In this document: positions 42,416 through 43,049 of the stretch, piece by piece
Layout: each line of letters begins with the position of its first letter
How positions within the stretch are numbered: the first letter of the stretch is position 1
NCBI GenBank assembly: GCA_964016885.1
Contig: OZ024761.1
Span: forward strand, 10,540,001 to 10,604,000
Source of the DNA: Eledone cirrhosa
Lineage: Eukaryota
Direction: 5' to 3'
Length of the DNA: 64,000 nucleotides
The notes under the pieces: model-generated
The model's database searches: none
Told to the model about the DNA's origin: nothing
What the model saw: the letters and a program-made list of their open reading frames with translations, nothing else
Made by a program: the position numbers and the translations under genes

Positions 42416-43049
42416 TTTAATTACAGGTGCTAATGGCAATAGTGTTGATATAATATGTACCTATGTTTAATTACAGGTGCTAATGGCGATAGTGTTGATA
42501 TAGTGTATACCTATATTTAATTACAGGTGCTAATGGCGATAGTGTTGATATAGTGTATACCTATATTTAATTACAGGTGCTAATGGCGATAGTGTTGATA
42601 TAGTGTATACCTATGATTAATTACAGGTGCTAATGGCAATAGTGTTGATATAGTGTATACCTATGTTTAATTACAGGTGCTAATGGCAATAGTGTTGATA
42701 TAATATGTACCTATGTTTAATTACAGGTGCTAATGGCGATAGTGTTGATATAATATGTACCTATGTTTAATTACAGGTGCTAATGGCAATAGTGTTGATA
42801 TAATATGTACCTATGTTTAATTACAGGTGCTAATGGCGATAGTGTTGATATAATATGTACCTATGTTTAATTACAGGTGCTAATGGCGATAGTGTTGATA
42901 TAATATGTACCTATGTTTAATTACAGGTGCTAATGGCAATAGTGTTGATATAATGTATACCTATGTTTAATTACAGGTGCTAATGGCGATAGTGTTGATA
43001 TAATATGTACCTATGTTTAATTACAGGTGCTAATGGCGATAGTGTTGAT
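42416..43049 (+). repeat. 50-bp tandem array with 13 copies of the exon E splice acceptor
   Basis: The unit ttacaggtgctaatggcRatagtgttgatataRtRtRtacctatRtttaa starts every 50 nt from 42421 to 43021. Confidence 0.97.

Follow-up and report, generated by a model that had tools for sequence, protein, structure and literature searches.

Thirteen tandem copies of an acceptor boundary in a calsyntenin gene of Eledone cirrhosa, a likely young and tolerated mirage

Tandem repeats known as mirages have been described from amphioxus, the original paper reportedly being that of Canestro et al. in 2002. According to excerpts of two articles (PMC3087553, PMC3902484), these are minisatellite-like copies of intron/exon boundaries which leave normal splicing undisturbed, with cases in Adh3, the globin genes BflGb6 and BflGb9, troponin C and PGBD5. 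Human junction VNTRs are listed in a portion of PMC1557585 for F7 IVS7 (37 bp), CBS IVS13, LMNB2, 6-16 and PDGF. That portion describes the F7 pseudo-donors as silent and the authentic exon-adjacent site as the only one used in F7, LMNB2 and PDGF; 6-16 and CBS intron 13 are leaky, with two pseudo-donors used. For CBS 844ins68, where the acceptor of intron 7/exon 8 is duplicated, selection of the distal copy is cited in an excerpt of PMC1802585, and a 403-bp donor duplication in FGG wrecks splicing according to an excerpt of PMC9052919.

We analysed an array of 13 near-identical acceptors at the start of exon E of a calsyntenin gene. The array is a mirage, a repeat class already described, which the initial annotation of this locus had missed. 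Like the amphioxus mirages, the copies in this gene stand in tandem, affect both 5′ and 3′ boundaries and have kept many of the AG and GT signals, and the 50-bp unit lies inside the reported range of 10-160 bp. They differ in having a mollusc host, in affecting four junctions of one gene and in carrying a 16-nt filler in the unit. With the human junction VNTRs the locus shares identical pseudo-sites beside an authentic one and the use of the exon-adjacent site. However, those VNTRs are on the donor side while the exon E array is on the acceptor side, and a donor-side array at exon F lacks the GTs. CBS 844ins68 resembles it as a duplicated 3′ splice site of which the distal copy is chosen, but has two copies rather than 13, and its selection is helped by G runs located between the two sites, which are absent from the exon E unit. 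The AG|GT at unit intervals recalls the dual-specific AGGT sites of UBC (excerpt of PMC10809524); unlike dual-specific and recursive sites, the exon E junctions match U1 poorly, and isoforms of variable length are not seen in the contigs of RNA run X1.

A literature search among open-licence papers, with most subscription papers outside its scope, found no octopus or mollusc mirages, and the present case extends the class to cephalopods. It is a natural case of 3′ splice-site choice: the acceptor is present 13 times in near-identical form, a relative has no such array, and the RNA contig uses the exon-adjacent acceptor 13 although the likely original intron end lies 600 nt upstream. The locus lends itself to minigene work on exon definition in molluscs, and for annotation it is a warning that partial exons are mimicked by arrays of this type. 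Greater importance would arise only if copy number altered calsyntenin output.

The exon E array and its host gene

The window, by which we mean the whole 64-kb stretch of DNA analysed, holds most of a calsyntenin gene, the first exon of which was not found within it. The features around exon E are as follows.

34775..63838, + strand, calsyntenin gene with 15 exons and 965 codons without internal stop, from the exon joins
39228..39419, + strand, exon D with donor GTG|GTATGT; the D-E join matches Octopus proteins
40554..42355, + strand, 19-bp minisatellite of 95.7 copies in the same intron as the exon E array, from a repeat scan
42400..42426, + strand, acceptor of copy 1, likely the original intron end and now a decoy, from its unique upstream flank
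42416..43049, + strand, 50-bp junction-spanning minisatellite (mirage) with 13 acceptor AGs, from TRF and an exact site count
42427..43026, + strand, twelve decoy units, each running into TAA when read in the incoming frame, from translation out of exon D and unit alignment
43025..43026, + strand, AG of acceptor 13, used in an RNA contig (record 1 of run X1 starts at 43026 without a differing letter)
43027..43308, + strand, exon E of 282 nt, coding for a linker and the start of the laminin-G/LNS domain, from protein identity, Pfam and splicing in X1

Exon E shares 99% identity with the calsyntenin-1 proteins of Octopus bimaculoides and O. sinensis. Its join to exon D reads RKLCGANGDSVDLLPSPS, as in five Octopus proteins (P0001-P0005), and the corresponding motif is found in 36 of 42 homologues. 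The flanking introns measure 3607 nt upstream and 525 nt downstream, the former being brought to this length by the 19-bp minisatellite. This repeat of 1.8 kb (40554-42355) is strongly A/C-skewed and ends 60 nt before the array. Elsewhere in the gene, exon K (51335-51467) has only about 62% identity to O. sinensis over the tblastn hit, which makes it far more diverged than the other exons, and it is missing from the O. bimaculoides models P0001 and P0002. Exons A, B and F are missing from the O. bimaculoides models P0001, P0002, P0004 and P0005, which run into the intron past exon E; these defects are probably due to gaps of assembly or annotation.

TRF reports the array at 42416-43049 with a period of 50, 12.7 copies, 96% matches and a score of 1114. 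It is a head-to-tail tandem repeat of minisatellite size, and its unit straddles a junction of intron and exon in the host gene. Thirteen exact CAG|GTGCTAATGG acceptors are spaced at 42427 + 50n (n = 0-12, i.e. 42427-43027); thus CAG is kept in 13 of 13 copies and every junction reads CAG|GT, as had been claimed along with the tandem copying of a single calsyntenin 3′ splice site. The unit had been described as an intron end plus an exon start. This is right for 11 nt of intron end and 23 nt of exon start, but the unit also holds a 16-nt filler that matches neither, agreeing at 3 of 16 positions with the sequence of equal length just upstream of copy 1 and at 3 of 16 with the continuation of exon E. 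A search for the source of the filler gave best local matches of 6-8 points, which are not convincing. The units vary at 6 of 50 columns and differ on average by 2.5 letters. One filler variant is common to units 2-5 and another to units 6-10 and 12; by inspection, without a tree, neighbouring units are alike, as in concerted evolution.

When donor 39419 is joined to each acceptor in turn, 12 of the 13 joins read GANG(D/N)SVD plus six codons and then TAA, the stops lying at 42468 to 43018, each 14 codons in, and the reading frame through exon E is open only from acceptor 43027. The initial annotation was therefore right that twelve copies lead to a stop, that the last alone continues into the exon and that mis-selection would give a premature stop. 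In O. sinensis numbering, the predicted decoy product would end near residue 345, past the cadherin domains but short of laminin-G (367-548) and the C-terminal part.

Copy 1 has an upstream flank of its own, with CTCAC at -16 and a CCCTTTT tract, and 14 pyrimidines in 20 nt as compared to 12. Branch points follow the pattern yUnAy. The CTAAT previously pointed out as branch-like is present in the unit with its A at -44, but an AG intervenes at -35 before the acceptor is reached. TTGAT is better placed as a branch-like motif, its A lying at -29 with no intervening AG. Judged by position in the sequence, it is likely that TTGAT, not CTAAT, serves as the branch point of acceptor 13.

Sequencing reads and a close relative

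Read data come from four of the ten runs listed (X1, X2, X4 and X5) and refer to 42950-44950, a stretch which covers the last two units only; X3, X6, X7 and the RAD-seq runs X8-X10, which are from other individuals, were left out. No sites for EcoRI, PstI, SbfI, SphI or MspI occur in 42300-45000.

The kind of run X1 is unrecorded, but it behaves as RNA in giving a spliced contig. This contig of 3464 nt has a depth of 167.9 and no mismatch, is placed on 43026-43308, 43837-44013 and 44757-44889 with the F-G intron removed at a GT..AG joint, and starts exon E at acceptor 13. An end at 43026 is expected if exon D, the last letter of which is G, has been joined to acceptor 13, and we infer that exon D, which lies outside the examined stretch, is the upstream partner. 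The contig continues for about 1400 nt beyond this stretch. By arithmetic on the record positions it has 1467 nt from exon H on, compared to 1415 coding nt, and thus it likely spans the coding sequence and represents the whole of it. Upstream of acceptor 13 no RNA contig was found, and X1 depth is 0 on 42950-43016. Since contigs drop rare variants, this single RNA run (contigs, tissue unrecorded, without NMD block) shows the main form and not the absence of leak; for that main form, regular splicing is undisturbed. The acceptors had all been called functional, which is true of copy 13, used in the RNA contig, and is shown for this copy alone. The idea that mis-selection matters is not supported by run X1, where only acceptor 13 is seen.

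In DNA run X2, record 7 is an 80-nt contig on 42970-43049 with a depth of 11.9, as compared to 2 at single-copy exon E. Depths in X4 are 35.6 and 31.7 against about 7 or, by arithmetic on bin means, about 51 against 7. The assembled array predicts an approximately 6-fold depth for its 31-mers but, as depth is no copy number, both runs are only in rough agreement with the assembly. Tandem arrays are often mis-sized, and X2 and X4 are from one DNA sample, which may itself be the source of the assembly, so that an assembly artefact had to be considered. It is extremely improbable, with unit-to-unit contigs at several times the single-copy depth, near the 6-fold expected, and with patterned variants at six columns across the units. 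As far as tested, the unit-to-unit junction in the contigs of X2 and X4 supports the array as a real one.

Organism B, a close relative (run X5), has one 638-nt contig which matches 43016-43330 only and differs there at 7 of 315 letters. Upstream of the match this contig has 281 unlike letters, with no depth further up. The match ends at a register equivalent to the array start (42416); organism B has a single acceptor and no exon E array. The absence from organism B makes the array probably young, while with a single relative a loss in B is possible. From this alignment we infer that B lacks the array, that the filler would be a novelty and that copy 1 would hold the original intron end.

Selection of the last acceptor

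We consider the exon E array to be a likely young, tolerated mirage of which only the last acceptor appears in assembled mRNA, the decoys likely being passed over by exon definition (probability about 0.83). The array, a member of the mirage class, is likely harmless and not a dial of expression. The founding duplication would have taken 11 nt of intron and 23 nt of exon with the 16-nt filler at the joint, and the unit may have been amplified by slippage or unequal exchange. Exon E would be defined across its body by the strong donor AAC|GTAAGT at 43308, which has 7 of 9 U1 matches, and by enhancers of its own. Across the 13 acceptors, exon length would range from 882 nt for the first to 282 nt for the last. 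As the upstream intron of 3.6 kb would cause the exon to be defined across its body, the acceptor with the shortest exon would win (282 nt versus 332-882 nt), and exon definition is likely the selector of acceptor 13. In human data, exon definition favours sites nearest across the exon, while the overall preference for upstream 3′ splice sites is "significantly reduced" for long/long introns, not plainly reversed (excerpt of PMC9225289). Acceptor 13 would take its branch point, TTGAT with the A at -29, from the preceding unit, and the likely original intron end would stay unused on copy 1. Nonsense-mediated decay, the presence of which in octopus we assume from general knowledge, would remove the product of a rare leak, in which the stop lies far upstream of many junctions. 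Arrays that break splicing would be purged, so that survivors would look like the exon E array.

The decoys could instead divert a small share of transcripts into stop-containing RNA so that array length tunes the dose of calsyntenin, the diverted RNA being subject to NMD or translated to a secreted two-cadherin fragment. Twelve decoys have kept the AG in a near-identical context, the pyrimidine tract is better at copy 1, leaky human junction minisatellites exist (excerpt of PMC1557585), and a product truncated near residue 345 would retain the cadherin domains but lose laminin-G, TM and tail. However, at a gene depth of 168 there is no decoy-derived RNA contig, the copies of F7 and amphioxus are silent in the excerpts cited above, and the array, being absent from a relative with only 7 differences in 315 letters, is not conserved. 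We regard tuning by copy number as distinctly unlikely. It is also unlikely, if a little less so, that octopod genomes spawn exon-edge mirages at a raised rate and that the exon E decoys leak enough for a heritable dial of calsyntenin dose or a secreted two-cadherin fragment; if true, the array would provide a test of exon definition at 13 natural sites, where a repeat-built branch region has taken over from the original one.

Self-correction by recursive splicing, where a wrong splice to an AG|GT is corrected by a second splice that joins the regenerated GT to acceptor 13, would lead to a final mRNA identical to the X1 contig. The exon E junctions do have the AG|GT of recursive and dual-specific sites, CAG|GT being found at every one, and weak dual-specific AGGT sites do occur in tandem repeats, as in UBC (excerpt of PMC10809524). 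They lack the donor consensus, however: the regenerated donor GTG|GTGCTA scores -1.37 with 3 of 9 U1 matches, compared to 4.98-12.47 (leave-one-out) for 14 real donors of the gene, and 43% of the 906 GTs in 35000-52000 score equal or better. In addition, the GT is part of a Gly codon in a conserved CG motif, and an array at exon B, with AG|AT, offers no GT for a second splice. The re-splicing that the initial annotation had proposed is therefore not supported, and we judge it to be highly improbable. An RNA structure that hides the decoys and exposes the last acceptor is hardly credible. Base pairing across the junction is possible between GUACCU of the filler and AGGUGC, but the resulting hairpin covers acceptor 13 as well, with a predicted unpaired probability of 0.03, the same as for copies 7-12, while copies 3-6 are predicted to be more open (0.82-0.97), and the folding z-score is 0.02. 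As the AG of acceptor 13 is not singled out in the predicted folds, structure was rejected as the selector.

Other junction copies and repeats in the window

Copies of junctions were found at four of the 29 junctions of the calsyntenin gene. Besides the exon E array these are the following.

34700..34748, + strand, decayed single copy of the exon A start in the upstream intron (local score 44, 0 of 400 shuffles)
35274..35593, + strand, second acceptor mirage, at exon B, with a 53-bp period, 6.3 copies, 82% matches and AG|AT, from a repeat scan
43996..44362, + strand, donor-side mirage at exon F, about 61 bp, with the authentic site and five copies, from sequence copies

The exon B array is missed by an exon-only probe (53 of 400 shuffles). 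A stop within 150 translated nt is encountered in five of its six upstream copies. Five of the six carry CAG|AT and one AAG|AAT, as in an older mirage. At exon F, the G of the GT is missing in all five copies, possibly as one inherited change, and splicing in the RNA contig proceeds from the authentic donor. Organism B shares the exon F array, with a joint 44076-44136 and a raised depth which suggest that the copy number differs.

Three arrays at 29 junctions compare to an expectation of 0.59-0.76 if arrays were placed at random (P 0.02-0.04), a weak excess, the exon F array having been counted by its sequence copies, as the TRF start is 46 nt off the donor. Without the exon E array, which prompted the analysis, two arrays are left with P 0.12-0.18, and thus we do not claim a bias towards junctions. 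An AT-rich 29-bp repeat at 44662-44780, before exon G, agrees at 22 of 30 positions with the exon G junction (10 of 400 shuffles). It is possibly a decayed mirage and, being borderline, was left out of the count.

The 10.9-kb intron preceding the TM exon contains an open ORF of 1022 aa (59008-62073, - strand), which by eye is RTE-type LINE-like with endonuclease and reverse transcriptase. This ORF splits a 32/65-bp minisatellite into the parts 58389-58694 and 62034-62304. A 48-bp minisatellite unit occurs at 1570-2298 and, in opposite orientation, at 32643-33036, a pair which suggests seeding by a dispersed repeat.
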